Below are positions 17,064 through 63,828 of a DNA stretch of 64,000 nt, piece after piece. Source of the stretch: Tubulanus polymorphus (lineage: Eukaryota; Animalia; Nemertea); NCBI RefSeq assembly GCF_964204645.1, contig NC_134029.1:16734950-16798949 (forward strand), in the 5' to 3' direction. Every line of letters begins with the position of its first letter. Position 1 is the stretch's first letter. The notes under the pieces were generated by a model. That model saw only the letters and a list, made by a program, of their open reading frames with translations, made no database searches and was not told the origin of the DNA. A program made the translations under genes and the position numbers.

Positions 17064-17134
17064 GTAAGTATTCGAATGTCGATTCCCCATCAACCATTAC
17101 AGCAGAATAACTCAATCTGCTCTCTGTTTTCCAG

Positions 17135-17683
17135 ACTTTACTCCTAGAAACTCCTACACCAACTCCAGAAGTTAAATCTCAGCCATTCTTCCAGACTCCA
17201 ATGGTACCGACTCAACTTTTCCCTCCGGACATCAAATCAGAAAATGCTCAGGTTGAAACTAAACCAGAGGATCCAATTGTGGAAGTCCCACCAGCGAATG
17301 AACCTTCAACTGCAGATAATCCAGAGTTAGTCACTCCTAAAGTAGAACCAGTCGATGTGAAAACTGAAACTAGTCAGAAATTGGAGCAAACAATTCCACC
17401 AGAACTCTTGCCTCCAACTCCGATGAAAATAGAGCCTCCAGAAATAACGACAGCCACTACTGATAAAACGGATACACCGACACCGCCTGGTAGTCCTGTC
17501 GAGGAATCATCGGTATCGTTACCTGGTACACGGATACCATTCCCATTTCCGTCTCAGTCAACAATGCAATCCGCAGTTAATACAGCGGAAGAATCACCGG
17601 TCGTAGTAGTAATGAAACCTGAAGATTCTGCTAACCAAATTAATGTGATATCGTCACGGTTGCCTAAATTCTTTCCTAAATAA
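17135..17683 (+). CDS. PCF11: PCF11 last coding exon
   Basis: ccag acceptor; Pro/Glu/Thr-rich tail ending at TAA 17681-17683. Confidence 0.8.
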   Translation, partial: TLLLETPTPTPEVKSQPFFQTPMVPTQLFPPDIKSENAQVETKPEDPIVEVPPANEPSTADNPELVTPKVEPVDVKTETSQKLEQTIPPELLPPTPMKIEPPEITTATTDKTDTPTPPGSPVEESSVSLPGTRIPFPFPSQSTMQSAVNTAEESPVVVVMKPEDSANQINVISSRLPKFFPK

Positions 17684-27402: not shown

Positions 27403-29430
27403 CTACAAAGATATCAAAAACAAAATGAGGGCGAAACTCTAAAACAAGCATCACGAATAGATACCATCTGGTAAAAGCCACAGTACACACTATTCAGAAA
27501 GCACACAACAAGTAAAAACTACGCATGATTTCCTAATATGTTGCATTAAGTAGCATTTACCCTTCTATCAAATAACCATATCAGGTCAATTGGCCCGGCC
27601 CCCCATTTCAAAAGTAACATTAGGTAAAGCAGTTGGCGGGATAATAGTACAGATCAATTATTTACCCGCTTGGCCAAAGGCCAACTCTCTACCGGTAATC
27701 AATAATTATCCAGTATGGCTTTCAAATAAACGCATTTGTTTCGCGATATCATTTTTTTTAACTTCGCCAACATTGCTTTCATTCTCTTATAACTAGTTTA
27801 TGAGGTTTTGTTATTGTCCGTCAACCTACAGGTAAGAATATTGCACTGGTTTAGTGGATGAATGTTGAGAATTTTCTATCAATTTAGCCACTTGGCAGGA
27901 TGGCAGGAATCGAAAGCGCAGCATCTTGACTATGAACTTGGCCATTAATATTGTTCCTGAAAATGCCCAAGACTAATTGGCAGGGGCAAGCAAGACCCAT
28001 AGCCTTACAGCATGGGCAAAAGACCCATATATGATACAATACTAAATGGCACAAGCAAAAAGACCCTTAGCCAAATGGCATAGGGCAAGAAAGACCCACA
28101 AGGTAAGGAATTTAGTTTATACCTCCACCGAGAACCTAGTGCCAGTGGTTTTCCTATCGATATAGCGAGAATAAGGAATTTGGGATAAACAATCACTGAG
28201 AACCTATCAGTGGTCTACCTATCGCTATCGCAAGAGTATAGAATCTAGTATATACCCTCACTGAGAACCTAGACAGGTAGGTCAGGTCAGTCAAAGGTTA
28301 CAATGAGGGCTCAATGGCTGCTTTGCGAGAGGACATAGAGACCCCTTTAAAGCATGAGTGGATAAAACAAATATGTTCTTAATTAGCTAGAAATATTCAG
28401 CTGCTCATTGATTTCAAGATTTACATGGGGGCTCCAATTCCCAAGCATCAAAACCTGAGTGAATGCGCTTTATAAGTAGAAACTGAAGTGGATTTCTTAT
28501 AAGTCACGGATACTGCTGGCAATTGTGCCAAGCCAGATGAGAAAGGGAATGACGAATATTCAATAGTGGTTCTTAAATCTATTTAAACATCATCAATTGT
28601 GGGTTCACATATCTTAGAACAGTGCAGGGAATTACAGAGCTTTACTATTTAAATCACAGCAATTGCTGCGCTCCCAGGATAGCAGTTCCAGGTAATGACG
28701 CACTTGGTTACAGGGCAAACTTGCCGAACTGAGCGATTTTTCTCTCTCAATATTTTATTGCAATGAAAAATAGAAGATTTATAGCTCGCGTTGCCTTCAG
28801 GTAACATCGTTCTTTATCCTGTTCGCTAGGATTGACGGCTTAACATGCGTTATCATACCTTCTGAGTGAACAAAACAAAATTCCAAAATTTTATCAGTGT
28901 GCGATAAAATATCTTGAGTGAATGGAATAGATTCCTGCACATGCTGGTTATACCTAGCTCGCACTTTCTTCAATATTTTGCAGGGGGTAAAATAAGCAAT
29001 TGCCGTATGCTTCATCCTTAGTTAAAATTTGGAATTGGATTTGGTGTTTTTTTTTTGTAAAGAAAATAAAATAAAATCGAATTGGATTGGATTCAATGTT
29101 TTTTTCTGAATAAAATTGATTTAAATTGGATTTTATGTTTTTGCTGATTTTAATCTACTTGAATTTGCTATTAAATACTTGGCTTATCAGCAAATCATCA
29201 ACATTAAAAAATTCATTTTACCCAAGCCTTAGACAACTATCAAAGATTGTCTTCTTTGCAAAAAAACATGTTCAAAGAAAGAGTTTCTGAAAAAAGATAG
29301 AAACTCTAATAATAAATAACTCTAATAACAAAGAGTTTTCTGCCAAAGGAGCCGAATCCGTAAAAGCATGAACTTGATTTTGGAAAAAATCATAGGAAAA
29401 AATCATAGGCGAGAATGAGAGAAAACAAAC

Positions 29431-29763
29431 CTCAGTAATTGGAGTTCTACATCTTTCTTCTAAACGTTTTTTAAGCATTTCCTTCTGTAATTTACTCTGG
29501 TGTTGGCGACAAACCCATGAACGAGATGTACGGGTTTTATATGTTATCTCCTTGCATCCGTCAACTGAACATTTCTGCATGCGTAATTTACGGCCAGCAG
29601 GTGAAGATTTCTCCGTCGACGACGTCACCTCCTTGTCGCTGATCGGTCGAATGTAAGTCATCGAGTCCTTCATATCCTGACCCTCGTTCATGTGAATTTC
29701 TCTGAGTGCTCCCTGGTGGTGAAGGCTTTCGTCAAAAAAGTCTTGTATATTCACCATCTCCAT
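29431..29763 (-). CDS. RFXAP: RFXAP first coding segment
   Basis: ATG at 29763; CSVDGCKEITYKTRTSRSWVCRQHQSKLQK resembles RFXAP 'CTYEGCSETT...PWMCKKHRNKMYK'; donor GAG|gtttgt; the three exons join in frame to 208 aa. Confidence 0.78.
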
Positions 29764-29803
29764 AACAATGTTAAAACTTCGAATCTTCGGATAAAAATGT
29801 CTT

Positions 29804-29866
29804 CTACGCAAGTAGTAATTCTGGTTTTAAAGGTGAAACAATTTCTTCTTCTTCCTGGAAATCCTC
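29804..29866 (-). CDS. DPH3: DPH3 last coding exon
   Basis: atcaaag|GAG GAT...; EDFQEEEEIVSPLKPELLLA* in phase with exon 2. Confidence 0.75.
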   Translation of the reverse strand, partial: EDFQEEEEIVSPLKPELLLA

Positions 29867-39900: not shown

Positions 39901-40641
39901 GACGAGTCCTGCACCAGCTGCTTACAGTGTGCGGGCAACACTACAAGCCGCCCCGTCGTGAGGTTTGAATAATCGAATAGGGTTAGTCTTGGTAAGAATA
40001 AAATAGGGCTGTGATGCAAATAAAACAAAGTCAATTTTAAATGAAAAAAAGGTGAGTAAAGTGTGAGTGAAATGATTAATATTTAAAACATTTGAATATT
40101 TATATTTGTTTAAGTTAGACTTAGTTTAGTAAAAGTATTGTTATAAAAAAGAAGATACTAATAACTTATTTTCATTATTTAACATTAAAATTTACATCTC
40201 GGCAACAAATTTTGTGTATGGAAGACAATATAAAATTGATAATATTACTAGAGTTAATCAAATATTATCAAATGAAACATATTTAATTACTGAACTAATA
40301 GATACTTTAGATAATGGTGCCAAAAATCCTAAAATATTTCATACAGTTTTAAATTATAAAGGTAGTTTAGATGAAAAAATAATAAATATTCTTGAAACTC
40401 CTTTCAATGAAAGAAATGATGATTTGATACTTTCTAAAATCAGAAATTTAATCCTAATGAAAAAATATATTGTTATTGCGGAGGTAAATATTTAAGATCA
40501 CATAAATCAAAGCAAACAATTAAACATATCAATGATGGAAAGAATAATAATTCTATATTGAAATAGGATTAAGCTGTATGTTATAATTATATAATAGTTT
40601 AACATTTTGAAATAAGTTTATGAATAACAATTAAATTGTTA

Positions 40642-40730
40642 AAATGTTAAATTGTTAGACTGTTGAAATGTTAAATTGTTAGACTGTTGAAATGTTAAAT
40701 TGTTAGACTGTTGAAATGATAAATTGTTAT
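40642..40730. repeat. 24-bp tandem repeat x ~3.5
   Basis: (aaatgttaaattgttagactgttg)n. Confidence 0.8.
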
Positions 40731-41084
40731 TTGATTTAATCTTTTAAAAGTTTGATATTTTAAAAATGATTATAAAATATTAAATTAAAAACTAGCAAAT
40801 ATTTATCAATTTTTCAATTTTTTATCTTAAATAAAGGATGGTTTCATTCCAACCGGAAGTAGTGACTTGAAACATTATTTAGTTGCTGGAGGATTAATTT
40901 TAGCTGCGCTATACTTTTATTATGAGAATATTAGTTAAGATCTGATTAATGAAAATATGAAATTAAGTAAGAAGTTAAAGAAGCTGAATGGAAATGGGCA
41001 TACAAATAATAATAATAAAAAAGTTATTGAAATAGATAAACTAATGAATTAATTAAATAATTTTTTCTTTTTTTCTACATGAGT

Positions 41085-42327
41085 TGTCAGCCATCGAGCT
41101 ACGTTCCCCTTGCAATGGAAATCCGAGTTACTACAACATTTACGTCGTATATGTATCAATTTCTTCCAGGTTGTTTGGTCTGATAATCAGTAGGTTATCA
41201 TCCTCAGCACCCAGAGAAGTATGTTTATATACATAAGTTGTCGTGACGAGCATTTACCTATGAACCATGAAGTACTGAACTGACGTCTCTCGACCTATCC
41301 GAGTCATGCATTTTTCCACCGGGTTTTCGTGTAATCTTGAACTAAATAAAATGTTAGACCGTACTAAACCTTGTAACAGTAAGCACTGCCTTGTTGTCCC
41401 TGGTCGTCGTTCGTTACACTTATTCGTTGGATTCGGAGTTCGTCGTTATGTCTCGTCGCCGTTCGTCCTTGTAGTTAACAGTCGCTACAATTTGGTCCCT
41501 CGAGCCGGATCCATTTGAAGAAAATTTGAAGAAAGAAGTAACCAGAAGTTCACGACATGACAGATTTTGAAAGCTTGAAGGAGCTACGGAGGGAGCAACG
41601 AGGACAATTCACGAAATGGAAAAAGAAATGTGACGACCATCTGAAAGAGAAACACGCGGCTCAAGGTATGTCTACCGTTTGCACTCTAAAGCCGGGCGTA
41701 GGTCGACCTTGCGACGCGACGCGATCGTCGCGTTGCGTCACAAGTCGGGGCGTAAGTCGGTTGCGACGCGATTGTCAGCGACTGTGTGCGACTAGTTGCT
41801 CCCAGTCGCAAGAGCGCGTAGTTCGGTTGCGACGGTCGCGTCGCGTCGCAGAAAGTAGAACATGTGCGACTCATTGCGACTGGCGTCGCTGGCAGTCGCA
41901 ACCCGTCGCTGGCAGTCGCAAGGTAGCGTAGGTCGGCGAGTCGTTGCGACGCGATCGTCGCTGGCGGTCGCAGTGAGTCGCAAGCCGTCGCAAGGCCGAC
42001 CTACGCCCGGCTTAAGACATACATTTTCGAAATAGGAAGAGATAGAAAAAGACTTGATAAGTACTTGCGAATTAAGAGGGAGAGATCGTCACAGGAGATG
42101 AATATCTGTGTGAGCGACTTACTGAAATTAACATTCTTGAGATAGCATTTAATCAGTTGTGTGCCAATGTTGCAGACAAAAATTCCAGTTCACTTACGAA
42201 CAGTAAGCGCATATCCTTGCCGAAATTGCAGTTACCAAAATTTGCTGGTGATTTGTTGGAGTGGTGTTCCTTTTGGGATTTTTTTAAGACTACGGTTGAC
42301 GAACAAAGTAATTTGAGTTCAGTGAAT
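41085..42327 (+). mobile_element. Truncated BEL/Pao LTR retrotransposon: 5' LTR (41085-41489), PBS (41493-41510), gag fragment
   Basis: TGT...ACA LTR followed by tggtccctcgagccggat (complementary to a tRNA-Tyr 3' end); disrupted gag from 41557 with LPKLQLPKFAGDLLEWCSFWDFF (DUF1759-type). Confidence 0.8.
41690..42012. mobile_element. PIF/Harbinger-like MITE inserted in the gag
   Basis: TIRs agccgggcgtaggtcg.ccttgcgac, flanked by a TAA duplication (41687-89, 42013-15); rich in gtcgc/gcgac. Confidence 0.8.
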
Positions 42328-42362
42328 TAAATCAATTGGTCGCTCCGCGACCAATTGATTTA
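42328..42362. other. Perfect hairpin, 16-bp stem / 3-nt loop (copy at 44717-44751)
   Basis: taaatcaattggtcgc-tcc-gcgaccaattgattta. Confidence 0.85.
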
Positions 42363-42808
42363 TTTACAATACACAAATTCATATAATCAAATATATTCAA
42401 ATAATAATAATTATTCTATTATTTAACTAAAATACACACGGCTATGAAAATATATTATAGTTTTAAATTACTTTTAATATTTGTTTTTAATGAACTCGAC
42501 CATTCAACCTTTAACCTAGAACAACTAAACCCCTATTACTCTTAAAATATTTATATACATGAATAAAATATATATGAATAACATATAAATTGATAGATTA
42601 TTCAATATAAAAGTGTAAGTAAAGTGTTAATAAAGTGTGAGCTCTTATAGAATAGATATATAGATATATTTTAAACATATTTCAATATTTATATTTGTAT
42701 GAGTTAGATTTTTAAACATTAAAAGTGTTAGTAAAGTGTGATTGAAATAATTCATATTTAAATCATTGAACTTCTAAAATCAATTTTAATAAAAAATTTA
42801 GTATTAAA

Positions 42809-44197
42809 ATGGAAGCAAATAAGTACTACTGTTCAACATGTAAAATCAATATAGATAAATCCCAAAAAGCAAGACACAATAAAACTAAAACACATTTAGA
42901 GAATAAATTGAAATTAGAATATAAAGATGATATATTAGAAACTAAATTAGATGAATTAAAGAATGAAAAAGAAACATATAAATGTGATACATGTAATCAA
43001 TCATTCAGTGATAAAAGATATTATAAAGAACATTTAAAATCTAAAAGTCATATTGGAAATATTGGAAATATGAATAATGATATTTTAGGTGAGGATTATT
43101 TTGATAATGACAATGATCAGAAACATAAGACAATTAAAAGAATAAGAAATAAATTAAACAATAAAAGACCATACATGGAAGATGTAAGAAATTATATTAA
43201 TTCATTAGATAATAAAAAAAATATAGAGATAACCGAAGCATTTAAAAGTGATATTGGTCCAGCTGCTAGTGAGTTTAAATTTCATAAAGGAAAAACATTA
43301 GAAGAAAATAAATAACATTTAGAAAATATGAAAAATATCATAAAAATAATTACTGATGTTGAATACCCTAAAATAAGTATATCTTCTAAAGTAAAGTTTA
43401 GGCAAAAAAAAATTGATACCTTGTTTCTCCGCTCTGCTGAGCTTAAATGTTGACCCGGCCGGCCGCCTATCTACCCTATACATTACTTTTTTTTAAATCG
43501 TGATCAATTTCACCATAACAGACCCGGCCGCTATGGAAATGAACTGTTTATGAATTTTATCATATTTCACAAAAATGACCCGGCCGCTGCGGAGAAACAA
43601 GATATCATTTTTGTTTAGCCTTATAAAATCTGAAGATAAACCAATATATAATATAAATTCTCATTCACAACATATTATATCTAAACAACATATAGATGAA
43701 AAATTAGATAAATGTTATAATGAAGTAAAAACTAAAATAGAAGAGAAATATTTTGAAGGATCTGGTTTAATATTTGATGAAATAATATTTATGACTTTAC
43801 ATGTTTATAACACAAAATATAATAAGTTAACTAAATCGAAACCAATAGATGAAAATAATGAAACCAGATATTGAAGCATCGAGTTATATCAAACTACCAT
43901 TTAAAACTAATGCTGTAATAAATGTACAAAATTTTGAAGATAAATGTTTTCTATGGACAATTATAAGTTGTTTACACGCAGTTGAAGATTATAAACAACA
44001 TAGTTTTAGATTAACACATTATAAACCATTTGAAAATAATTATAAGATAGATAAGTATCCTATTAGAATTAAAAATATCCCAAAAATAGAAAGAGATAAT
44101 AATTTAAGAATAAATGTATTTGATTTAATCAAATCATCAAAAACAAAAGGTAACAATATAAAACATTATACATTAGAACCTTTATATTTAACAAAAG
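42809..44197 (+). pseudogene. Duplicated 5' part of polymerase 1 (zinc-finger N-terminal region)
   Basis: Nearly identical to 45198-46586; carries a stop, a MITE and a frameshift. Confidence 0.85.
43401..43620. mobile_element. PIF/Harbinger-like MITE in the polymerase 5' region
   Basis: TIRs ggc.aaa.aaa..tgata.cttgtttctccgc, TTA duplication; removal restores KVKFIKSEDKP (compare GKVSFIKSEEK in polymerase 2). Confidence 0.8.
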
Positions 44198-45197
44198 TTC
44201 GGTTGCGTAGTTCGGTTGCGACGGTCGCGTCGCGTCGCAGAAAGTAGAACATGTGCGACTCATTGCGACTGGCGTCGCTGGCAGTCGCAACCCGTCGCTG
44301 GCAGTCGCAAGGTAGCGTAGGTCGGCGAGTCGTTGCGACGCGATCTTCGCTGGCGGTCGCAGTGAGTCGCAAGCCGTCGCAAGGCCGACCTACGCCCGGC
44401 TTAAGACATACATTTTCGAAATAGGAAGAGATAGAAAAAGACTTGATAAGTACTTGCGAATTAAGAGGGAGAGATCGTCACAGGAGATGAATATCTGTGT
44501 GAGCGACTTACTGAAATTAACATTCTTGAGATAGCATTTAATCAATTGTGTGCCAATGTTGCAGACAAAAATTCCAGTTCACTTACGAACAGTAAGCGCA
44601 TATCCTTGCCGAAATTGCAGTTACCAAAATTTGCTGGTGATTTGTTGGAGTGGTGTTCCTTTTGGGATTTTTTTAAGTCTACGGTTGACGAACAAAGTAA
44701 TTTGAGTTCAGTGAATTAAATCAATTGGTCGCTCCGCGACCAATTGATTTATTTACAATACACAAATTCATATAATCAAATATATTCAAATGATAATAAT
44801 TATTCTATTATTTAACTAAAATACACACGGCTATGAAAATATATTATAGTTTTAAATTACTTTTAATATTTGTTTTTAATGAACTCGACCATTCAACCTT
44901 TAACCTAGAACAACTAAACCCCTATTACTCTTAAAATATTTATATACATGAATAAAATATATATGAATAACATATAAATTGATAGATTATTCAATATAAA
45001 AGTGTTAGTAAAGTGTTAATAAAGTGTGAGCTCTTATAGAATAGATATATAGATATATTTTAAACATATTTCAATATTTATATTTGTATGAGTTAGATTT
45101 TTAAACATTAAAAGTGTTAGTAAAGTGTGATTGAAATAATTCATATTTAAATCATTGAACTTCTAAAATCAATTTTAATAAAAAATTTAGTATTAAA

Positions 45198-48100
45198 ATG
45201 GAAGCAAATAAGTACTACTGTTCAACATGTAAAATCAATATAGATAAATCCCAAAAAGCAAGACACAATGAAACTAAAACACATTGAGAGAATAAATTGA
45301 AATTAGAATATAAAGATGATATATTAGAAACTAAATTAGATGAATTAAAGAATGAAAAAGAAACATATAAATGTGATACATGTAATCAATCATTCAGTGA
45401 TAAAAGATATTATAAAGAACATTTAAAATCTAAAAGTCATATTGGAAATATTGGAAATATGAATAATGATATTTTAGGTGAGGATTATTTTGATAATGAC
45501 AATGATCAGAAACATAAGACAATTAAAAGAATAAGAAATAAATTAAACAATAAAAGACCATACATGGAAGATGTAAGAAATTATATTAATTCATTAGATA
45601 ATAAAAAAAATATAGAGATAACCGAAGCATTTAAAAGTGATATTGGTCCAGCTGCTAGTGAGTTTAAATTTCATAAAGGAAAAACATTAGAAGAAAATAA
45701 ATAACATTTAGAAAATATGAAAAATATCATAAAAATAATTACTGATGTTGAATACCCTAAAATAAGTATATCTTCTAAAGTAAAGTTTAGGCAAAAAAAA
45801 AATTGATACCTTGTTTCTCCGCTCTGCTGAGCTTAAATGTTGACCCGGCCGGCCGCCTATCTACCCTATACATTACTTTTTTTTAAATCGTGATCAATTT
45901 CACCATAACAGACCCGGCCGCTATGGAAATGAACTGTTTATGAATTTTATCATATTTCACAAAAATGACCCGGCCGCTGCGGAGAAACAAGATATCATTT
46001 TTGTTAGCCTTATAAAATCTGAAGATAAACCAATATATAATATAAATTCTCATTCACAACATATTATATCTAAACAACATATAGATGAAAAATTAGATAA
46101 ATGTTATAATGAAGTAAAAACTAAAATAGAAGAGAAATATTTTGAAGGATCTGGTTTAATATTTGATGAAATAATATTTATGACTTTACATGTTTATAAC
46201 ACAAAATATAATAAGTTAACTAAATCGAAACCAATAGATGAAAATAATGAAACCAGATATTGAAGCATCGAGTTATATCAAACTACCATTTAAAACTAAT
46301 GCTGTAATAAATGTACAAAATTTTGAAGATAAATGTTTTCTATGGACAATTATAAGTTGTTTACACGCAGTTGAAGATTATAAACAACATAGTTTTAGAT
46401 TAACACATTATAAACCATTTGAAAATAATTATAAGATAGATAAGTATCCTATTAGAATTAAAAATATCCCAAAAATAGAAAGAGATAATAATTTAAGAAT
46501 AAATGTATTTGATTTAATCAAATCATCAAAAACAAAAGGTAACAATATAAAACATTATACATTAGAACCTTTATATTTAACAAAAGATTATGATTCAAAC
46601 GATGTTATAGATATATTATATTATGAGAATCATTACATGTGGATTAAAAGAATTGATTTATTTTTTAAATCAGAAAGTATTTTTGATAATAAAATATATC
46701 TATGTAGAAAATGTTTACATAAATTCAGAACTGAAAGTGCATTATTAAATCATACACAATTATGTGAAAATCATGATTATTGTAAATTAGTTTTACCAAT
46801 TGAAAAAGATAAAATATTAGAATTCAAAAAATATGATTACAAAAATAAAGTTCCATTTGTAATATATGGAGATTTTGAATCATTAAATAAAGAATTAATT
46901 GATCGAGATAGAAAAGAAATATATTATAAAAGAAAGAAATTAAATTCTAATGAAAATGATTTTTCAGATGAACCACCAAAAACAATTACTATTAAAAAGA
47001 TTCATCAATCAGCTGCTGCTTTCGGGTTATATATTAAATCTGATTATCCAGAACTAATTAAAAGTGAATATTATCATTATAGAAATGAAAATGTTATCAA
47101 TATTTTTGTGACTTATTAATTGAATATGAAATAAGATTTAGTAAATTATTGAATTCAAATATAGAAATTATAATGACAGAAGACGATAAAGAAGCATTTG
47201 AGTTTACAGATAAATGTTATTATTGTGAAAAGATATTTAATTATAAAGATAAAAAAGTAAGAGACCATGATCATTTGAATGGAACGTTTAGAGGCGCTGC
47301 GCATGAGAATTGTAATTTGCAAGCAAAGAAAATCAATTTTGTTCCAGTTATATTTCATAATCTATCAGGATATGATGCACATTTATTCATCAAACAGTTA
47401 TGCCATAAAATAGAAGAAATTAATAATGAAATAGAAAGATTAAATTCAAATAGATCAAAAGATAAAATACCAACTTATAAATTTAAAATGTTAGCTAGAA
47501 CATCTGAGAATTATATATCATTCCAATTTGGGTGTCTAAGATTTATAGATTCATATAGATTTTTAAATAGTTCATTAGATAACTTATCAAAATCATTAGT
47601 TGATGATGAATTAAAAATATTAAAGCAACACTATCCAAATAATGATGATTTTCAATTAATGAGATATAAAGGCGCAATTCCATATTCATTTTATAAATCA
47701 CATAATGATTTTAATATAACTGAATTATTGAAAGAACAATTCTATGATGAATTAAGAAATGAATATGTTAAAGATGAAGTCTATAATAGAACATTGAATA
47801 TTTGGAATCATTTTGGAATGAAAAATCATGGACAATTAGTAGATTTATATTTAAAATCAGATGTATTATTATTATCGGATATATTTGAAAGGTTTAGAGA
47901 TGTAAACCTAAAATATTTCAATATTGATCCTTGTCATTGTTATTCTAGTCCAGATTTAACATGGGATTGTGGTTTAAAATGTACAAATATGAAAATGGAT
48001 TTGTTAACAAATATAGATCAATTATTATTATTTGAAAAATCTATGAGAGGAGGAGTTTCAGGTGTATTAGGTGATAGATATTTCAATGTAAATGATAACA

Positions 48101-49105
48101 CTGGATATAAGTTATTATATATAGATGCAAATAATTTGTATGGTTGGGCAATGATGGAACCACAACCTTATGGAGTATTTGAAATAAGTGAAGTTTTTGA
48201 AAATAATGATAAATTTGATTGGAAGAAAAGAATTCTAGATATTGCAGATGATTCAGATACTGGTTACTTCTTTGTTGTAGACTTGGAATATCCTGATCAT
48301 ATTAAATTTAAATCTAGAAATCTAGTATGCTGTCCCGAACATAAAACTGTAACTCATGAAGAATTATCAAATTATCAAAAAAGAATTAAACCCGAAAATC
48401 ATATTCATACAGAAAAGTTAATGGTAACTCAAGAAGATAAATATAATTATGTAGTACATCATAGAATGTTAAAGTTTTATTTGAATCAAGGAATGGTTCT
48501 AAAAAAAGTACATAGATATATTTCATTTAGTCAATCTAAGTGGTTAGAAAAATATATAGATTTTAACACCAAACAGAGAACTGAAGCTAAAACTGATTTC
48601 GAGAAAGATTTCTTCAAGTTAATGAATAATGCATTCTATGGTAAGACTTGTGAAAATATTAGAAATAGAAATGATATTGAGTTAGTTAGTAATGGCAAAA
48701 GGATAAGGCATTTACAAACATATCCTAAATTTATAGGTAACAGAATATTTGATGAAAATTTAGCTGCAGTTAAAATGAGAAGAACATCTATGAAATTTAA
48801 TAAACCAATTTATGTTGGAGCATCAGTTTTAGAATTATCAAAGTTATTAATGTATGAATTCTATTATAATGTATTACAACCTCATTTTGGAGAAAAACAT
48901 ATAGAAATCTTATATTTTGATACTGACAGTTACATATTAAAGATAAAAACTAATAACATAACTGATGATTTAAAAACATTAAAACATCATTTTGATTTTA
49001 GTAATTATCCTAAAAATCATGAATTGTTTAGCAATGATAATAAAAAGCGACCGGGAAAATTCAAAGATGAATTAATGTGGTGAAGAAATGATTGAATTCA
49101 TTGGT
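45198..49105 (+). pseudogene. Protein-primed family B DNA polymerase 1 (intein-free); N-terminal zinc fingers and an EndoVII/HNH-like insert; 3' end displaced by an inversion
   Basis: IYGDFES (ExoI), RDHDHLNGTFRGAAHENCNL, FHNLSGYD (ExoII), YLKSDV (ExoIII), MRGG, YIDANNLYGWAM (A), KLMNNAFYGK (B), YFDTDS (C); several stops/frameshifts and a MITE. Confidence 0.92.
45790..46009. mobile_element. Second copy of the same MITE (via the tandem duplication)
   Basis: Same TIRs and TTA duplication. Confidence 0.8.
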
Positions 49106-49340
49106 TTTAAAATTAGATGAAACCATTTATTTACATTTCTAATATGAATTAAAAAAGTATTATGTTCAATAGTTTTATTCGATATATTGTAAAATGAGTT
49201 ACATAAACTTATATTAACTAATTTTAAATCAACACAATTCTTAAATTCTCTATCTAATTGTACTTGTAAATTATGAGATTTATAATTTGTAAGTTTTCTA
49301 GAATCAACAAATATTCTATATTCTTTTAATTCTACGATCT
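49102..49340 (-). pseudogene. 5' part of penton-like gene 1 (inverted)
   Basis: Reverse complement reads VELKEYRIFVDSRKLTNYKSHNLQVQLDREFKNCVDLKLVNISLCNSF, nearly the same as the start at 63070. Confidence 0.8.
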
Positions 49341-49355
49341 ATTTTACATATTTTC

Positions 49356-49709
49356 TTATTCGAAATCTATTTCATGGTGCCCCTTTTCATCCTTACCTTT
49401 GTATACGAAATAGAAATCTCCAGAACATAATTCTTCTAAATCTTCACTTGATAATCTATGAAATCTATCCGGTAAATATGTTCTGAATTTATATGTATTT
49501 CCTTTTAATCCTTCATATTCTAAGTGTATAACTAATTTATCTCCATATTTGTTAGTAATTGTATCAATATTTGTAATTAGATATTTCTTATGGATTATTA
49601 ATTGTTTTAACTTCTTAAATTTATAATCTACTGATTTGACATTTGAAGTATCTTTTATTCTATCTAGAAATAATTTGTTGTTCTCACTGTTTGCTTGTTT
49701 ACTCTCCAT
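49356..49709 (-). CDS. Hypothetical viral protein, 117 aa (inside the inversion)
   Basis: Intact ORF with TAAATG start; motif TNKYGDKLVIHL...TYLPDRF. Confidence 0.6.
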   Translation of the reverse strand: MESKQANSENNKLFLDRIKDTSNVKSVDYKFKKLKQLIIHKKYLITNIDTITNKYGDKLVIHLEYEGLKGNTYKFRTYLPDRFHRLSSEDLEELCSGDFYFVYKGKDEKGHHEIDFE

Positions 49710-49738
49710 TTATAATACATATTTTTATTAAAATTTGA

Positions 49739-50090
49739 TTAACACGTTAGAATTCTTTTCATTATCTCGTTCTCTTTTGTTTCTTCTCTTTTAAATTTTA
49801 AGTATTCATCTAAATTGCAACCATAAGCAACTGTGTGAATTCCGTCATCTAAAATATATCTTTTATCATCAAATGGGTTTAGACTTATCTTCTCTATCTC
49901 TTCAATAAACATTTCATGATCTTCAGATCTTAAACATTTCATCTTATGTTTTCTAACTTCTTCTTTGAATATACAATTGATGTAATCTTTGAAATGAATA
50001 TTCCGTTAAACAACGCTTTTGGTAATTCCTTTCAATTTCTTTGATTCATGAGTTTTGGTTTTATATGAATACATTTTGGATCTAATACCA
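49739..50090 (-). pseudogene. C-terminal part of polymerase 1 (inverted)
   Basis: GIRSKMYSYK...KKLKGITK...CLRSEDHEMFIEEIEKISLNPFDDKRYILDDG, colinear with the C-terminus of polymerase 2. Confidence 0.88.
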
Positions 50091-52124: not shown

Positions 52125-53404
52125 ATGGGGTTTCCAAAAGCTTTCCAATATAATAAATCAATTAAATATAATATTCCTGCAATAGATTTTAACAAAAATA
52201 TTACATATAAAAATGTAGTTTTAAATTCATTAACTAATTTAGAAATTTATGTTACTGAATTTTATTTCTAAAATGGAAAATATATTTAATACATATGAAG
52301 TTACTTTTACTCGAGATGAATATCATATATATGAAGTAAAATCTAATATGAAATATTGGCAAAATCAATTAAATTTTGCTGTTTATTGTGCAACAACTGG
52401 TTGTGGTATAAGCTGGAATGATCATTTAAATAACTTAGATAAAAATTTGAATTATTCTGATTTAAAATTAATTCACACAATATTTAGATTTCACACATAT
52501 TTTCAAATCAGAATAATATTAAATGAATTAGAATTTACCCGGATCTAAATATTTTAAAGAATTGGATAATAATATTAATCTATCTAAGTTTTATAAAATA
52601 TGTAATGAATTTAATGTAAATATTAATTCCGATTTTAGAGCGCATGGTAAATTGCAAGGTATTGGTGAAGAGTATGAAATAAAAAGAATTGATTATATGC
52701 ATAGAATTTCAGCTTATCATAATTATAAAATTGATAATAATAATGGTTGGATTAATTTCATTTTAGAAAATAGTGAAGGTTTTACAAAATCAGGTATACA
52801 AAGAATAAATCAATCTATTAGAACTTATTTGATATGTATTTTAGGCGCGCAAGTTGAAACAAGATCACCAATAGTTGGAAATGATAACACTTCATTTGAT
52901 GCGCAGAAACAATTTAAAGTTTTATTTGAAGATTCCATTCATAATGATAAAAATAGATCGATTCCAGAAAACATTGTAAGATATCAAAATTATTTAGATA
53001 AATCACATATTAGATTAAATTATTGTATAGGCCCTAATCTATTCATTATTTCTAATGATTTAGTATTAAAGATGGGAAATATAATTGGTTATAATAATTT
53101 AATTAAAACTGCAACAATAAATAATTCATTTGGATTAAATGATATAAATAAAAAGATTATCACTGCTCCAAAATTAATGGAAGGTGAAAAAAATAAAAAA
53201 CATATTCAATCAACAGAAACTAAAACTAAGAATATTAAATTAAATAATGATTCTAAAATAAAAGATTACAATACTACAGAAATTATTAAAACTGATAATA
53301 TTCAACATGAAATAATTAAACTAAATGATGATAATAAATCCCATGAAAATGCTAAATTAGCTATAACTTTTATAGGAATTGTAATCGGCGGAATTATATT
53401 TTAA
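52125..53404 (+). pseudogene. Hypothetical viral protein with C-terminal TM segment, frameshifted
   Basis: TAAATG at 52125, joining ORFs 52249-52548 (WQNQLNFAVYCATTGCGIS) and 52562-53404. Confidence 0.6.
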
Positions 53405-53427: not shown

Positions 53428-55020
53428 ATGGCAGAAGGTGGAGAAGATTATGAAATGGGAGGAATGGGAAATAATAATGACGGGTATATTGATGATTATA
53501 ATGATGCTGAAAATAATATTGATAATAATGATGAAACAGCATATAATTCTAATTTAGCAGATAGTGGTTCTAAAGCCCCATCAACAGATGAATTTGATAG
53601 AAGAACTAGATCGAGAATAAATCCTGAAAATGAAAATCAAGGTTTAGCAAGACAAGATTTAGAATATAATGAAAATATTTATAAATTCAAACCTGTATTT
53701 GAAAGATCTGGGTATAATATAAATGATAGAGATGCCGAACGTTTAGTAGGAGATTTAAAACTTTTAGAAGGTAAATATTATTATCATTTGGATGGTGATT
53801 ATTATATTGATATCACTAATCAAAGGACAAGACTAAACAAAATATTAGCAAAATCAACTTTGGAAAAATTAGAACCAGATAGAATTAAAATAATAAGTAT
53901 TAATAATGAAATAACTGATGTTACACAAGAAGAAAGAAATGATAATATAAAAGAATTTAGTCAAAGAATTGATGACTTATTAAAAATAATCAATAAAAAT
54001 TCAGAAACAGAAATGGAAGAGTATGGAGATCGATTAGATAGATTAAGATCTTCAACACCCGAAACATCGAGAAGAGATATTCAACAAATTGATAATGATT
54101 CAAGTCAATTACAATTAGGAAAACATTTAGATAACTTACTGGATACAATGAATTCATTTGAAGAAGATATGATTAGTGTTTTAGATACACCCGGTGCTGA
54201 AACTGGAATAAATCGAATACAATCTTTACTAGAAAAAGGATTACTTGATTTAACTGATGATGAATTAGAAGCATTTCCTGAACAAACACGTAGAGAAATT
54301 AAAGGTATGCAATTTCACCAGCTGATTCTTGCTAATATTAAGATGAGATTTTCTAAAATAACCATGTTAGAAAAAGAATTAACTATTGCAAATGAAGAAT
54401 TAAAACATTTAGAATTAAATAGAGATCTTCAAGTAATAGAGGAAGCTGATTATGAAAGCAGAAAGTTAGCTTTAGAAAAAGAAATAGATGATTTGAAATA
54501 TAACAAAGAATTACAGGAAAAAGAAATTAAAATCATATGATCTTAATCATATCAAAAAATTAAAAGTTATTTTTAAAGATTTAATAATTAAACCAGATTC
54601 TAAAATATCATCGAAAGATAGAATAAAATTATTATTTAAGTTAGAAGGAATAACAATTCTTTCAATTCTAACATCTGTAACTATGGTATTTACAACAATT
54701 GGTTTAGCTATATCAAATTCACTGAAATCTACTCCTACTCCCAATAAACCGGATAAACCCCCAGATAGTAATTCGATACAAGATAAGTTAAAGATGGTTT
54801 AAAAAAATTAGCAAAATATTTATGGGAACTATCTAAAAAATCTGCTGCAGCTTTACCAGGAGTTATTGCATCAATTGTTGGTTTTATATTGAAATCTGCA
54901 GGAAACATTCTTAACTTTGCTGCTAAACATATTATTTTATTTTTAATTACAGTTGTAAGTGCTATTATTTTTGGATTCGTGAATATGATATCAAAAAATA
55001 TCAAGAAAAAATACACATAA
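53428..55020 (+). pseudogene. Large coiled-coil protein with C-terminal amphipathic/TM helices, disrupted after 54540
   Basis: 370-aa ORF, then downstream fragments ...KKSAAALPGVIASIVGFILKSAGNILNFAAKHIILFLITVVSAIIFG... Confidence 0.55.
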
Positions 55021-55054: not shown

Positions 55055-56267
55055 ATGAGCGGGAGTTATATCAATCCTTCTAAGAATCATAGAATATCTA
55101 ATGCTATTTAAGATCACATCATATAATTACTCATAACCCTTCTAATATTAATCCCGATGAAACTTTATATGTTAGAATCCCTCCATTAACACAAAATACT
55201 TTTTATGTTCCAAATAGTATTTATTTATCAGCCGATATAAAAGTAACTGGTAATAATAATAATTACGTTGTTGATAATGTTGGAAGATATTTGATTAAAA
55301 AATTAACTATAAAGATTGGTCCAGAAACAGTTTTCTCATTAGATGATGATAATTTATTTATGCATTATAAAGATTTATGGTTAACTACAGAAAATAGAAA
55401 TAATATGATATTTCAAGGAATCCAATCAGAAAACCAAAATAAATTAAGACCAGAAGCACATAATGCAATATTAACTAATGCTATAGATAAATTGATAAAA
55501 AGTATATATGGAAGCAGATATAATAATTAAGATTTTGAATTGATAAATAATAATGCACCTTTATATAAATACGCAATTCAAGAAGATGTTATATTCGAAA
55601 TAACATTTGCTCCTGTTAATGAAATCGTAATATCTAGCGTTAATAAAGATATGGGTTATAAATTATCGAATATATGTTTAGAATATGATACAGTAACTGA
55701 TGAAAATATTTCAAGTATAATTCAAACTCAATACAATCAAGGATTTTCATTATTATATGATTATATTGATAAATTTTAAACTGTAACTATTAATGCAAAT
55801 GATGAAATTATTAATGAGAATATTAACTTCCCAAGAAGATCTATTTAAGGTATATTAATATTTTTTACCATTGCCACATATTCAAATGGTGAAATAAATG
55901 TTGATAATTATTATAATCCTGAAATAACAAAAGTAGAAATAACTATCGAAGGAATAGCAAATAAAATATTTTGTCAATGAATGAGAATGAACATTTTATG
56001 AATGAAAAAGTAAAATCATCTGAAAATTGTAATATTAATCAAATTGATTACTATATCGGTAATAAATACGCATTATGGTTAGATTTTAGAACAACAGAGG
56101 ATAATTCATTACATGGTTCTGGGAAAAAACTACAAAATACAAAAGATGGAATACAATTATTCATGACAAAGAATAAAGGAATCAAAAATTTCAAAATGCA
56201 TATTTATATTATATCTGACGCGCAATTAAATATCGTAAATTCTCAATTAAATAGTGTTATGTATTAG
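55055..56267 (+). pseudogene. Major capsid protein (double jelly-roll, Polinton/adintovirus type), fragmented
   Basis: IITHNPSNINPDETLYVRIP...VDNVGRYLIKKLTIK...NICLEYD...KYALWLDFRT...LHGSG...IYIISDAQLNI; beta-strand-rich, ~400 codons, several stops/frameshifts. Confidence 0.7.
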
Positions 56268-56299
56268 AATTTTAACTTTAATAAAAATTTATATAATAA

Positions 56300-56620
56300 A
56301 TGGAAGGAGGTAAAGTATATAAACATATTCCATATATCGATACCCATGAAAATAATGATGGCTTATATTATGTAATACCTTGTAATATAGCTTTGATATT
56401 TGATCCTATTTTTAAAATTTATAAAACTAAACTAATAGAAATCGATAATAATAAAAGTGGTGTTGTTGATAATTTAAGTAATGTAATTGATGATAATGTT
56501 ATACCTTCTACATCTAATAATGTAATACCTTCTACATCAGTAATTGTAAAAGTAGGGTTTCATACCAGAGGGCGAGAGGGCGAGACACCACTCATCACCA
56601 CAAGTAATTTTTTTTCCTAA
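56300..56620 (+). CDS. Hypothetical protein, 106 aa
   Basis: TAAATG start; short internal repeat (NVIPSTS x2). Confidence 0.45.
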   Translation: MEGGKVYKHIPYIDTHENNDGLYYVIPCNIALIFDPIFKIYKTKLIEIDNNKSGVVDNLSNVIDDNVIPSTSNNVIPSTSVIVKVGFHTRGREGETPLITTSNFFS

Positions 56621-56623
56621 TAA

Positions 56624-59600
56624 ATGGGGGAGAATGAACACCAACCAGAAAACAATAATGTTAATAAAAATCAATATTATTGCCAATATTGTAAAAAATA
56701 CATCGATACATCTCATAAAACACGACATGAAAAAACTGCAAATCATATAAAAAATGTAATAGATTTTGAAACTCCAGAAAATTCCAATGAAAGAAAAGAA
56801 AGATTAGAAAATATGAATGTGGATGAAATAAAATGTGAAGTTTGTAATGAATTTATAGTAAAAAGGAATTATAATAGACATCTCGAATCACAAAAACACC
56901 ATCAAAATTTGAGTAATAATGTTTTAGGAAAAGATTATTTCGATGATAAACCTCAAAAAGTAAAAAAACCAACTTCAAAAACTAAATCCATTTCAAATAA
57001 ACCTTACATGGAAAATGTTAGAAATTATATTGATTCACTAGAAATAAAAGATACAATTGAAATTTTAGAAACATTACATAGTAAAATTGGTCCAGCAGCT
57101 ATTATATTTAGATTTTTTAAAGGTACAACAATAGAAGATTATAGTAAATTTAATGAAATAAAAGAAAAAATACTAGATTTGATAACAGATGTTGAATATC
57201 CAAAAATTAGTATCTCTGGGAAAGTAAGTTTTATAAAGTCAGAAGAAAAAATGGATTATAATATTCAAACACTCTCTGAAGAAATAATTTCAAAAACGCA
57301 AATAAAAGGGAAGTTAGAAAAAATATTTAATGAATTTAAACGTCATATTGAAGAAAGATATTTTGAGGGTTCTGGCTTAACATTGAATGAAATTGTATAT
57401 TTAGATTTAAATGTTTACAATACAAAAAGGAATAAAACATCAAAAAGTAATAAAATGTTTAAAAATGATTCAAACTTTACAACAGAAAAGGATATTAAAG
57501 CATCATCTTATATTAAATTACCATTTACAACAAAAGCAGTAATAAATGTTCAAAATGAAGATAATAAATGTTTTCTATGGTCAATTATTAGTTGTTAACA
57601 CCCAACAGAAGATATGACGCATAGTTTTAGAATAACAAATTACCGGAAATATGAAACATTATATAAAATTGATCAATATCCAGTAACTATAAAAATGATT
57701 CCTAAAATAGAAAAAGTTAATAATTCAAAAATTAACGTATTCGAATTAATGCAATTACCAAAGACAAAAGGTGAAAATATTAAAGATTATACATTGGAAG
57801 CTTTATATTTAACAGAATATTATGATGATGAAAATGCTATAGATTTGTTATATTACAAAAAAGATGAAAATGAACATTATATGTGGTTAAAACAAATTGA
57901 TTTATTCTTTAGAACAGAAAGTGATCACCATAATAAAATTTATCTATGTAGAAAACGTTTATCTAAATTTATGACTGAGAATACATTATTAAAACATAAA
58001 GAATTATGTGATAATAAAGATTTTTGTAAATTAATAATGCCAACAGAAAAAGATTATAAATTGAAATTTACTAATCATAAATTTAAGAATATTGTTCCAT
58101 TTGTAATTTATGGGGATTTCAAATCGTTGAATAAAGAATTAACTGATCAAGATAGAAAAGAAATATATAACAAAAAGCAATTATTAAAATCAATGGATAA
58201 AGGAAATGAATTAAATGAAGACACAACACAAGACCCACCAATTATAAATACAATTAAAAAAGTTCATCAAAGAGCTGCTGCTTATGGAATTTATATAAAA
58301 TCAAATTATCCCGAATTATATGAAAGTCAATATATTTCTTTTAGAAGTGAAAATGTAGTTAATGATTTTTGTAACAAAATGATTGAATTAGAAAGTGATT
58401 TTGCAAAATTATTAAACAAAAATAAAAGAATAGTTATGACAAAAGAAGATGAAATTGATTTTAATTATGCAACTCATTGTTGTTATTGTGAAAAACGTTT
58501 TTATTCATTTGATAAAAAAGTTAGAGATCATGATCATTTAAATTCAAAATATCGTGGAGCTGCTCATGAAGATTGTAATTTACAAGCTAAGAAAGTTAAT
58601 TTCGTACCAATATTATTTCATAATTTATCAGGCTATGATACCCATCTATTTATAAAACAATTATCAAGGAAATTGGGCACAATTAATCAAGAAATAGAAG
58701 AATATAATGCTATGAATGGTGTAAATGTAAGAAATATGATTTTAAACTATTAGCTAAAACATCTGAAAATTATATTTCATTTCAATTTGGTTGCATTAGA
58801 TTTTTAGATTCTTATAGATTTCTAGCAAGTTCATTAGATAATTTATCAAAAAGTTTAGTTGATAATGATTTTGTTATAACTCGATATTATTATCCAAATG
58901 AACAAGATTTTAAATTATTGAGATATAAAGGTGCAATTCCTTATTCATTTTACAAAACACATGATGATTTTAATGTAACAGAATTATTAAAAGATCAATT
59001 TTATGATCAATTAAAAGAGGAGTATGTGAAAGATGAAGTGTTTAATAGAACATTAAATATTTGGAACCATTTTAAGATGAAAAATCATGGTGAATTAGTT
59101 GATTTATATTTAAAATCAGATGTTATGATATTGGCTGACATATTTGAAAAATTTAGAGAAGTTAATTTGAATCATTTTAATGTTGATCCTTGTTATTGCT
59201 ACTCTAGTCCTGGTTTAACCTGGCAATGTGGTTTAAAATATACAAATGTAGAATTAGATTTATTAAAAGAACCAGATATGGTTTTATTATTTGAAAAATC
59301 AATTAGAGGTGGAATTAGTGGTGTTATGGGAGATAGATATTTTAAAGCAAATGATGAATATAAATTATTATATATTGACGCCAATAATTTATATGGTTGG
59401 GCAATGATGCAACCTCAACCATATAAAAATTTTATATTAACAGAAGTTGAAAATGATGATAAAACTAATTGGGAAAGCGCAATTATGAGTTTAGAAGATG
59501 AAGCACCAATTGGTTATTTCTTTGTAGTTGATTTAGAATATCCTGAAAATATAAAGTGTAAAACAAGAAACTTACCTTATTGCCCAGAACATTTAACTGT

Positions 59601-61692
59601 AGATGATAGTTATTTAAGTGAATACCAGAAGAAAATAAAACCGAAAGATCATGTTTTTACAGAAAAATTAATACTTACTCAAAATAATAAATACAATTAT
59701 ATTGTTCATTATAGAATGTTAAAATTCTATCTAAAACAAGGAATGAAATTAAAGAAAGTACATAGATATATTGAATTTAATCAATCGAAGTGGTTAGAAA
59801 AATATATAGATTTCAATACTCATCTGAGAACAATATCAAAAACAGATTTTGAAAAAGATTTCTTCAAATTATTGAATAATAGTTTTTATGGTAAAACATG
59901 TGAAAATATTAGAAATAGAAATGACATTGAATTAGTGAATAATTCTGAAAGATTAAGACATTTACAATCAAGTCTTAGACATTTAGGAAATAAAAGATTT
60001 GAAGATTATTTAACAGCAGTTAAATTAAAAAGAACGTCAATGAAATTTAATAAACCTATATTCATTGGTTCAACTGTTTTAGAAGTATCAAAATTATTAA
60101 TGTATGATTTTTATTATAATGTTTTACAACCACTTTTTGGGGAAAAGCATATTGAAATATTATATTTTGATTCTGTAACAGCTGACACCCCAATATTATT
60201 AAAATGTAATGATAAAATATTGATAAGAAGAATTTCAGAAATAATTCCAAAACAAAATGAATGTTATATTTCATATGGTGAAAAAGAATTAATACAAATA
60301 AATGGTTTAATGGATGTTTGGACAAGAAATGGATGGAAAAAATTAAAGAATATTATTAGGCATAAAACAAATAAGAAAATCTATAGAGTTAGAACTAAAT
60401 TAGGGTTTGTAGATGTTACAGAAGATCATAGTTTAATTAAACGAAATGGCGATGAAATAAAACCAACTGGTATAAAAATTGGAGATGAATTATTACATAA
60501 AAGATTTTTCCAAAGAATGAATCATATGTCATTTGATGAAATAATTGATAATATTTATAACATAGAACCCGAAACATTAGAAGAAAAAGAATATTTCATC
60601 AAAGGATTTTTCATGGGAGATGGTTCAGCAGGTGTGTATAATTATGTTTGGGGTAATAAATATTGTTGGTATTTATGCAATCAAGACTTAAAATTATTAG
60701 AAAGAATTAAGAAATTCTGTGAAGAAGTTTATCCAAATAAAACATTTAGAATCATGAATGTTATGAAATCATCAGCAGTTTATAGAATACTTGTAAATAA
60801 TCCTAAAGATTTTGCTATAAAATATAATGATGAATTCTATATTCATGCAATAGTGAAAAGTTATACTTCAACAAAAGAAAAGATAGTTCCAGATTATGTA
60901 TTAAATGCAAAAAATAATTCAAGAAAATGGTTCTTCATTGGATTCTATGCGGCAGATGGTGCTAAAAAATTTACAAAGGATAAAAAGATAACCTTTGCAC
61001 AGAAAGGAAAAGTTGCTATATCAGGGTTAAATATATTATGTAATTCATTAGGCTTCAATATGAATATTGGATTGATTAAATCTAAACCAAATTGCTTTAA
61101 TCTAAGCCACACAGAAAAAGATTTAACTGAAGAAGTTAAAGATTTATTTGAAATATATAACCCATCAGATTATGTTTATGATTTATCAACTGAAGATGGT
61201 ACATTTAACTGTGGATTTCCATTAATTTGCTTCAATACTGACAGTTACATACTAAAAATCAAGACAAATGATATAACAAAAGACTTAAAAACATTAAAAC
61301 ATCATTTTGATTTTAGCAATTATCCCAAAGGTCATGAACTATTTAGCAATGATAATAAAAAGATTCCTGGTAAGTTTAAAGATGAATTAGGGGGTGATGA
61401 AATGATTGAATTTGTTGGGATAAGAGGTAAAATGTATAGTTATAGAACAAAAGATCATGAAGCTAAAAAGTTAAAAGTAATAACAAAACATGTGGTTGAT
61501 AAACATATAGAATTTCAAGATTATATAAAGTGTTTATATAACTCAATTGTAATGAAACACAAAATGAATTGTTTAAGATCAGAAGATCACGAGATGTACA
61601 TTAATGAAGTTGAAAAAACTAGTTTAAATCCATTTGATGATAAAAGGCATATTTTAGATGATGGTATAAAGACATTACCTTATGGCCATTAA
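56624..61692 (+). pseudogene. Protein-primed family B DNA polymerase 2 containing an intein; one in-frame stop (57596) and one frameshift (~58730)
   Basis: ORFs 56624-57598, 57614-58753 and 58918-61692 are colinear with polymerase 1; all PolB motifs present, motif C split by an insertion. Confidence 0.92.
60172..61236 (+). mobile_element. Intein (355 aa) with LAGLIDADG homing endonuclease in PolB motif C
   Basis: In-frame insertion ILYFD|SVTADTPILL...VDVTEDHSL...FIKGFFMGDG...FFIGFYAADG...YVYDLSTEDGTF...ICFN|TDSYIL; absent from polymerase 1. Confidence 0.93.
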
Positions 61693-63069: not shown

Positions 63070-63828
63070 ATGGTAGAATTAAAAGAATACAGAATATTTG
63101 TTGATTCTAGAAAACTTACAAGTTATAAATCACATAATTTACTAGTTCAATTAGATAGAGAATTTAAGAATTGTGTAGATTTAAAATTAGTTAATATAAG
63201 TTTATGTAATTCTTTTAATAATATAACGGATAAACGTCTAGAACATTTAATTTTTTTCAATCTTTTACAAAAAAAGGAATAAATGGTTTTTTTTATATTT
63301 AAAACCAGGATTATATAATTTAGATACATTAGCACAAGAAATTAATAGAAAAGCTCGAGCTAAATTAGGAAGTGATTCCGGATTTAGTATTAGAATTTTA
63401 AAAAGTGATAGTTCTAATAAAATAAAGATTAGGTTAGCTAATGACGAACAATTTAAATTTACAGTAAGAAAACCTTTAGGTAAACTGTTGGGAATTAACC
63501 CAGATATTGTTACAGCATACGCAGAAGGTAGATCAAACTTAATACCTTTTACACATTTTTATATTTATTGCAATTTGATTGACCCAACAAAAACATTTGA
63601 AGCAACTAAAGATACAATTTGTAATTCTGGTTTATTAAATATTTTACCATTAAAAAATGTCAAACAATTTGGAACTCAAATAAATTATAATTTAACTGAA
63701 TGTGATTTCAAACCTTGTATTCCACATTTCAATAATTTTAAATTAGAAATAAGAAATCATAATGATATTTAATTGATTTGAATAACTTTCCTGTGATATA
63801 TGAATTAGTTATAAGATGTAGAGAGTAG
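63070..63828 (+). pseudogene. Minor capsid (penton-like) gene 2, frameshifted
   Basis: ORFs 63070-63282 and 63488-63772 are colinear with the reassembled penton-like gene 1. Confidence 0.65.

Follow-up and report, generated by a model that had tools for sequence, protein, structure and literature searches.

We analysed a 64,000-nucleotide stretch of a Tubulanus polymorphus chromosome, referred to here as the window. A Pcf11-like host gene has its exons on the forward strand at 8530-17683. An open reading frame (ORF) within it, 11279-12919, matches a T. polymorphus Pcf11-like protein with 100% identity over 95% of its length; the next-best matches, from Lineus and molluscs, are 41-48% identical. 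Because this gene is present, the left 40 kb of the window can be taken as animal nuclear DNA. A LINE reverse transcriptase lies at 22.6-24.8 kb, and a host exon on the reverse strand (29272-29826) gave a weak match to the RFXAP C-terminal domain (E = 7e-05, below the cut-off).

Beyond about 40 kb, GC content falls to ~23%, and this AT-rich region (40035-64000) is proviral. It consists of two polinton-like elements, arranged head-to-tail with equal gene order and 70-87% identity; element 2 extends past the end of the window and its right end lies outside. The polymerases of both elements match PF03175 above the cut-off, which makes both of them protein-primed family B polymerases (pPolBs), and both contain an Endonuclease_7-like insert. 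A broken ORF on the forward strand (55055-56267) is weakly predicted to be a jelly-roll capsid gene. Its Atlas feature matches (0.96-0.98) were to three clusters in which DJR-like, Capsid_N and Sputnik MCP families are found on 10-20% of members, and its recognition value of 2047 is under the tool's mark of 2300; it had no match in Pfam, NCBIfam, PDB sequences or viral contigs. Further ORFs of the region lie at 52532-53401 and 53428-54537.

A Pfam scan of 31 ORFs returned no rve integrase, packaging ATPase or Ulp1 protease; the copies are decayed, and element 2 is incomplete in the window. Likewise, none of the 25 longest inverted pairs at 38-64 kb, a span that stops short of the right end, was a terminal inverted repeat. 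Because none of these was found, we call the elements polinton-like and do not file them as polintons or adintoviruses. The head-to-tail join, from the capsid-like gene of one element to the polymerase of the next, falls at 56267-56624, and we saw no terminal repeat between the two. The polymerase is all that three related viral contigs (L100-L102) have in common with the window.

Both polymerase genes are broken. Polymerase 1 (45198-49101, forward strand) encodes a zinc-finger N-terminus, the Endonuclease_7-like insert and a DNA_pol_B_2 domain, and its lesions are a stop near 45286, a short inverted-repeat element at ~45795-46005, two frameshifts (near 47100 and near 49075) and an inversion. 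The inverted segment (49102-50090, reverse strand) removes the 3' end of the gene. Within it lie an ORF (49356-49709), the sequence for the C-terminal tail of polymerase 1 (49739-50005, extending to 50090) and, from an ORF that element 2 carries at 63070-63772, the 5' half; 49821-50090 corresponds to 61685-61416, and 49102-49344 to 63307-63065. Polymerase 2 (56624-61692, forward strand) is 73% identical to polymerase 1 at the protein level. Its two lesions, a stop (57596-57598) and a frameshift (near 58708-58753), lie upstream of an intein whose own frame is open.

The insertion in polymerase 2 is predicted to be a full-length intein

Polymerase 2 is interrupted in motif C, at LYFD/TDS (the slash marks the junction), by an in-frame insertion of 1065 nt or 355 codons (60172-61236, forward strand) that runs from Ser1 to Asn355 and is followed by a +1 Thr. 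We take this position to be the one known as site III (Ogata's site III) or Pol-c. The insertion carries Ser1, T83-E-D-H86, two LAGLIDADG motifs with D150 and D262, K237 (the KxIP lysine), a VYDL block and Phe354-Asn355 ahead of the +1 Thr. D150 and D262 are invariant in nine of nine aligned inteins, and the endonuclease motifs are retained in all six of the pPolB inteins aligned. A penultimate His is usual in inteins but not obligatory; here the residue is Phe354, and relatives carry His, Lys or Ser.

The insertion scored 30.9 bits against TIGR01445 (cut-off 24.5) and 29.4 bits against Pfam Intein_splicing, below the cut-off of 35.8 for that family. We modelled it with AlphaFold (pLDDT 83.8, pTM 0.86), and the best solved-structure matches of the model were all intein homing endonucleases, namely TliVMA (E = 4.7e-17), PI-PkoII, PI-PfuI and PI-SceI. 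The alignment to PI-PkoII (E = 3e-07) covers the Hint blocks and the second LAGLIDADG motif. The archaeal proteins PI-PkoII, PI-PfuI and TliVMA and the yeast PI-SceI share the two-domain fold predicted for the worm intein, although it is only 11-18% identical to them. Judged by sequence and model, the insertion appears to be a full-length class 1 intein in which a Hint fold encloses a two-motif LAGLIDADG domain, and both self-splicing and homing endonuclease cleavage are predicted.

Relatives and possible origin of the intein

Inteins of this type were found mostly in another polymerase class. Among 99 intein-bearing loci on viral and metagenome contigs, 91 were of the RNA-primed PolB type, one was a pPolB and seven were unassigned; pattern scans of such contigs gave one pPolB locus (L074) among 62. 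The protein search yielded closer relatives, with 12 pPolB inteins (41-63% identity) among the best 120 of 270 matches and three more surfacing among the extein matches. The best giant-virus relatives are 41-43% identical to the worm intein. In an intein tree of 50 hand-picked rows, which took only complete pPolB inteins, a branch with 100/100 support separates 11 pPolB inteins from 39 RNA-primed PolB inteins. The link of the pPolB clade to any particular giant-virus group is weak (84/78), and the outgroup does not fall on one side of a branch.

These data fit a single transfer between RNA-primed PolB and pPolB at the same motif. Because diversity is much greater on the giant-virus side, we infer that the transfer ran from giant virus to pPolB, with the root of the tree unsure. 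One pPolB-clade intein, P0005, comes from a single record on a 5.3-kb contig. It is 47% identical to the polymerase 2 intein, and BLAST finds no similarity between its extein and polymerase 2 (best E = 0.31); by its motif we take the P0005 polymerase to be of the VSR type. A grouping of the ten other pPolB inteins together, without P0005, was not rejected by the AU test (p-AU = 0.119).

Prokaryote genomes yielded distant inteins only. The best two (35% identity) are L103 and L104 from bacterial bins, which carry RNA-primed PolB-type ORFs of 1.6 kaa with an intein of this family and are probably misbinned giant-virus contigs. Some of the other pPolB records lie on contigs as long as 1 Mb, and one pPolB relative is labelled as a bacterial bin from a clam, which we regard as host DNA. 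Related inteins also occur in type II topoisomerase-like proteins and in the DNA polymerase delta of Chloropicon primus (P0079, P0082, P0092-P0096, P0085).

Polymerase 1 has an empty copy of the intein site

The corresponding site in polymerase 1 (48910-48936, forward strand, LYFD/TDSYI) is uninterrupted. An earlier note on this DNA had read the junction 48921/48922 as the empty allele of the intein site in a paralogous polymerase and had reported identical flanks at the two loci. Our results support both statements. The junction is indeed a LAGLIDADG intein site of motif C in its empty state, and the junction in the intein-bearing homologue lies 11,250 bp downstream. The flanks are exact at both loci and each was found twice in the window, with the 12 nt upstream (TTATATTTTGAT) at 48910-48921 and 60160-60171 and the 15 nt downstream (ACTGACAGTTACATA) at 48922-48936 and 61237-61251. 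The nearest mismatches between the two genes (-13, -19, +16 and +21) are silent and leave an exact core from -12 to +15. The empty site is also, as had been suggested, a sensible natural candidate substrate for the LAGLIDADG enzyme.

The two genes share further exact runs of 32, 26, 26 and 23 nt. In 20,000 codon shuffles, a run of at least 27 nt arose at this fixed junction in 2.3% and anywhere within 453 nt in 28%. The 27-nt run is real but mildly unusual, and as evidence it is modest (2-5% by chance). Leu at -4 is common to polymerases 1 and 2, whereas their four closest relatives have Met. Together, the run and the shared Leu hint faintly that the subfamilies have exchanged sequence locally.

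The worm carries an essentially empty and a mostly occupied polymerase subfamily

We used raw reads from another individual (run X6), which bears the same species label and comes from a different sample and study, taking about 12% of the run at 92% likeness. Runs X1-X4, which may come from the source of the window itself, were not counted as independent, and X5 amounts to a small share. Polymerase-1-type sequence was covered at a depth of 336-550 without a break at the empty site, where the two flanking bins had depths of 352 and 382 and no indel at 5% or above was listed. Over polymerase-2-type sequence, depth was 204-295 upstream of the intein (204-218 just before it) and 225 at the 5' junction, and the first half of the intein had 175-235; 2 reads skip the intein. 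These data indicate that the worm has two abundant subfamilies, with the polymerase-1 type essentially empty and the polymerase-2 type mostly occupied. By depth at the site, occupied copies make up about one third of the aligned copies. Given the sampling (12% of the run, 92% likeness) and a further 177 and 332 loose ends beyond those considered, rare occupied polymerase-1-type copies may exist.

Toward the 3' end of the intein, depth was 63-89 over 60922-61224. In many copies this 3' third has thus diverged or been damaged, reflecting either a second intein variant or decay in part of the family. At 60967, just past the second LAGLIDADG motif, 23 reads leave the sequence.

The breaks in the two chromosomal copies look private or minor. 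Across nine listed joints between opposite strands, 64 reads show the uninverted order in other copies, and the polymerase 2 frameshift is missing from 210 of 238 reads. We describe the subfamilies as multicopy from depths of 200-550 in 1,934 Mb of reads. If the genome is 0.3-1 Gb, as we assume, such depths would correspond to tens to a few hundred copies, to which episomal viral DNA could add.

Phylogeny separates the two polymerases as well. The sister of polymerase 2 is the empty protein P0166 (84% identity, support 100/99), and polymerase 1 groups with the empty proteins P0167-P0169 (81-86%, support 99/99). Because the closest relatives of each are other, empty proteins, polymerases 1 and 2 are sister lineages and not alleles.

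The earlier note had gone further and proposed that the two polymerases are donor and homing target in cis. Under this proposal, the enzyme cuts the polymerase 1 site and the intein spreads, or could spread, from polymerase-2 to polymerase-1 copies. The 27 nt of identity across the junction, with only silent changes within 20 nt, would suit such a pair, as would the conserved catalytic residues of the endonuclease and the high depth of both subfamilies in one animal. Some reads also depart from polymerase-2 sequence in mid-gene, as mosaics would. However, exact runs of equal length occur elsewhere in the two genes, both of which are broken, a point absent from the note, and belong to different sub-lineages, and the polymerase-1 type is empty at a depth of 350-380, continuous and unscarred, despite plentiful occupied copies in the genome. 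Germ-line expression of an enzyme able to cut polymerase-1 sites ought to leave conversion or scars; that neither is seen would agree with silencing as well as with resistance. The pair is thus probably not donor and target, and we consider spread from polymerase-2 to polymerase-1 copies on the worm's chromosomes very unlikely. Of the intein+/intein- polymorphism that the note described, the coexistence of both alleles in this virus group, in this host and in others, is borne out, but the difference seen here looks like a stable one between subfamilies.

Occupancy changes repeatedly among pPolB families

Of the best 120 of 3129 N-extein matches, 108 were empty, six occupied and three empty with a changed motif, while three ended short of the site. 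The empty state is the default at this position, and the empty allele of polymerase 1 is in itself ordinary. An N-extein tree of 50 hand-picked rows (15 occupied, 35 empty) requires 11 changes of occupancy, nine of them forced by well-supported branches, and occupancy on this tree was no more clustered than shuffled labels (55/500).

Whether occupied and empty alleles occur within one lineage depends on the family. In the worm reads, the polymerase-1 type is continuous and two reads of the polymerase-2 type skip the intein, but two database clusters, P0002 and P0006, are mixed. Of the 15 members listed from the 136 of cluster P0002, seven are occupied, six are empty and two do not cover the site. 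The occupied P0002 sequence is the same as its empty sisters over about 100 residues upstream of the site, but differs from them at 4-5 of the last 15 residues before it and 5-6 of the next 15. These differences fall within the last seven and next nine residues and match another, partly intein-bearing subfamily; over the last eight residues, P0002 is identical to P0263, a member of a distant intein-bearing subfamily. At the protein level, this resembles a co-conversion tract, although the same pattern could arise if the empty sisters had acquired escape changes, and under either reading the pattern suggests a working endonuclease in the P0002 family. A tract of the kind that the note proposed to look for thus has a protein-level counterpart in an unrelated family; in polymerases 1 and 2, the shared run has a 2-5% chance and equally long runs lie elsewhere. 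In cluster P0006, the empty copy P0141 is identical to occupied copies at 142 of 142 and 166 of 168 residues.

Intein and extein trees agree at the level of three main groups, P0005 aside. This agreement also fits one old gain followed by many losses: a single ancient entry at the base of the pPolB group, vertical descent and repeated precise loss through recombination with empty copies, with the endonuclease idle and the flank differences coming from empty donors. The AU result is compatible with such a history, and the distance between P0002 and P0004, as read from the trees, is similar for intein and extein. However, this history calls for many losses next to occupied copies that are nearly identical (P0141 versus P0138), the occupied P0002 flank matches a distant subfamily that is itself intein-bearing, all six aligned pPolB inteins keep their endonuclease motifs, and P0005 requires a jump between polymerase classes anyway. 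We regard an ancient gain of this kind as distinctly improbable.

Motif C varies among the empty alleles of a large ENA family (P0184-P0282), in which residues +1 to +3 read CDS in 39, TDS in 32, TDA in 8, TDG in 8 and other in 4 (n = 91). Thus 59 of the 91 depart from TDS, compared to 1 of 17 near relatives of the worm locus, and TDS is kept in all ten occupied alleles that were checked; these counts are not independent, and many of the records may be decayed copies. Such variability is possibly an escape from the endonuclease. It bears on a further explanation for the worm locus, in which polymerase-1 copies are a resistant class where silent changes at -13, +16 and farther out prevent recognition, and the intein acts as a weapon between co-resident viruses. 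A weapon model of this kind was proposed for Bodo saltans virus (PMC5871332). The stable coexistence of empty and occupied subfamilies and the contrast between variable empty and constant occupied motifs speak for resistance. Against it, polymerase 1 keeps TDS and the 27-nt exact core, the motif counts carry the limits just given, and the explanation overlaps with the one we prefer. Resistance therefore seems to us a genuine but doubtful possibility.

The explanation we prefer, and consider fairly probable, combines predicted splicing and cleavage with a giant-virus origin in a shared cell and homing among co-replicating viral genomes, not between the two copies in the window. The intein would have passed once from the RNA-primed PolB of a giant virus to a pPolB at the same motif-C position. 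Repeated gains and losses among polinton-like viruses would have followed, probably through homing while two viral genomes replicated in one cell. In the worm, the intein sits on most copies of one multicopy subfamily and is essentially absent from the other, and the empty site of polymerase 1 would be the ordinary uninvaded state of a sister virus subfamily. The adjacency of empty and occupied copies is likely to reflect tandem integration of two elements and not homing between them; with both chromosomal copies dead, the locus would record a subfamily split and not an active cut-and-copy pair. A bolder version places a live homing cycle among the integrated copies themselves, as a germ-line gene drive of a giant-virus intein in animal polinton-like pPolBs, which would bring about co-conversion and escape alleles where it meets the polymerase active site and would have the worm pair as its resistant-versus-occupied end state. 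We think this version unlikely.

Comparison with known inteins and polinton-like viruses

An intein of this type at this site is already known from Mimivirus PolB (Ogata 2005, PMC549080) and from related nucleocytovirus DNA polymerases (Green 2018, PMC5784728). The Mimivirus intein shares with the worm intein the motif-C position xxD/TDS, a similar length (351 versus 355 aa), Ser as first and Asn as last residue, the +1 Thr, the Thr/His block and the LAGLIDADG domain. The two differ in their host proteins, since the worm intein lies in a pPolB (PF03175) whereas those of Mimivirus and other nucleocytoviruses lie in RNA-primed PolB (PF00136). Unlike that of Mimivirus, the worm intein is part of a small polinton-like virus integrated in an animal chromosome and belongs to a pPolB intein clade of its own.

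Polintons and adintoviruses with an Alpha PolB (Starrett 2021, PMC8502044; Jeong 2023, PMC10748475) resemble the worm elements in several respects. These include PF03175 with an Endonuclease_7 (HNH-like) insert, AT-richness, multiple copies in an animal genome and, if the weak prediction holds, a jelly-roll capsid gene. A difference is that our scans of the window turned up neither an integrase nor a packaging ATPase, a protease or terminal inverted repeats. The word 'intein' has no occurrence in the main text and one supplementary file of each of these two papers. Krupovic 2024 (PMC11071308) does no more than suggest that inserts of the HNH and VSR kinds 'result from intein invasions', and such inserts are not inteins with a Hint domain.

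Inteins in endogenous viral polymerases of algae and protists are also already known. The relevant parts of Gallot-Lavallee 2023 (PMC10710043) describe them in Klebsormidium, Tetrabaena and Hondaea and report interparalog intein homing in Anaeramoeba. As in the worm, the intein entered a nuclear genome inside a viral polymerase, and occupied and empty paralogs share one genome. Those hosts are algae or protists, and in these parts the viral-like DNA polymerases are not named as protein-primed; the worm case is an animal, a pPolB and a high-copy occupied subfamily. Green 2018 (PMC5784728) states that inteins are absent from metazoan genomes, and the viral polymerase inteins that it lists belong to large DNA virus families or unclassified viruses. 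In the literature we searched, which did not extend to subscription journals, Repbase or InBase, no Hint-domain intein was described from the pPolB of a polinton or adintovirus. The finding here is a full-length intein in the pPolB of an animal provirus family, at high read depth.

An intein in pPolB points to gene flow from giant viruses to small polinton-like viruses. Since such flow would require the two to share a cell, it is relevant to the question of a dependence of animal polintons on giant viruses. In addition, a predicted LAGLIDADG enzyme together with natural empty sites from several families makes homing and escape testable in a eukaryotic virus population.

Other features of the proviral region

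A recent tandem duplication of 2.38 kb (41816-46586, forward strand; 41816-44197 versus 44205-46586, 99.6% identity) takes in the 5' part of polymerase 1 together with a fragment that resembles a retrotransposon. Host mobile DNA is nested in the provirus at 41070-42330, 41685-42017, 43404-43616 and 45795-46005; it comprises a gag fragment, which we take from its motif to be BEL/Pao-like, and two kinds of short inverted-repeat elements, and it was copied within the duplication. A 41-nt near-perfect palindrome lies at 42325-42365 and again at 44714-44754, on the border between this retrotransposon-like fragment and viral DNA, and could be an end or origin structure. Close to the left edge of the AT-rich region there is an array of an 8-nt unit (40623-40750).

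Nine of 15 candidate viral gene starts read TAAATG, compared to 7% of all ATGs in the region (40838-63070), a comparison chosen after the fact. These starts are often preceded by an AT-rich TAATAAAAA stretch. The context is presumably that of a poxvirus-like late promoter, and it hints at, or at least would fit, dependence on a large-virus transcription system.
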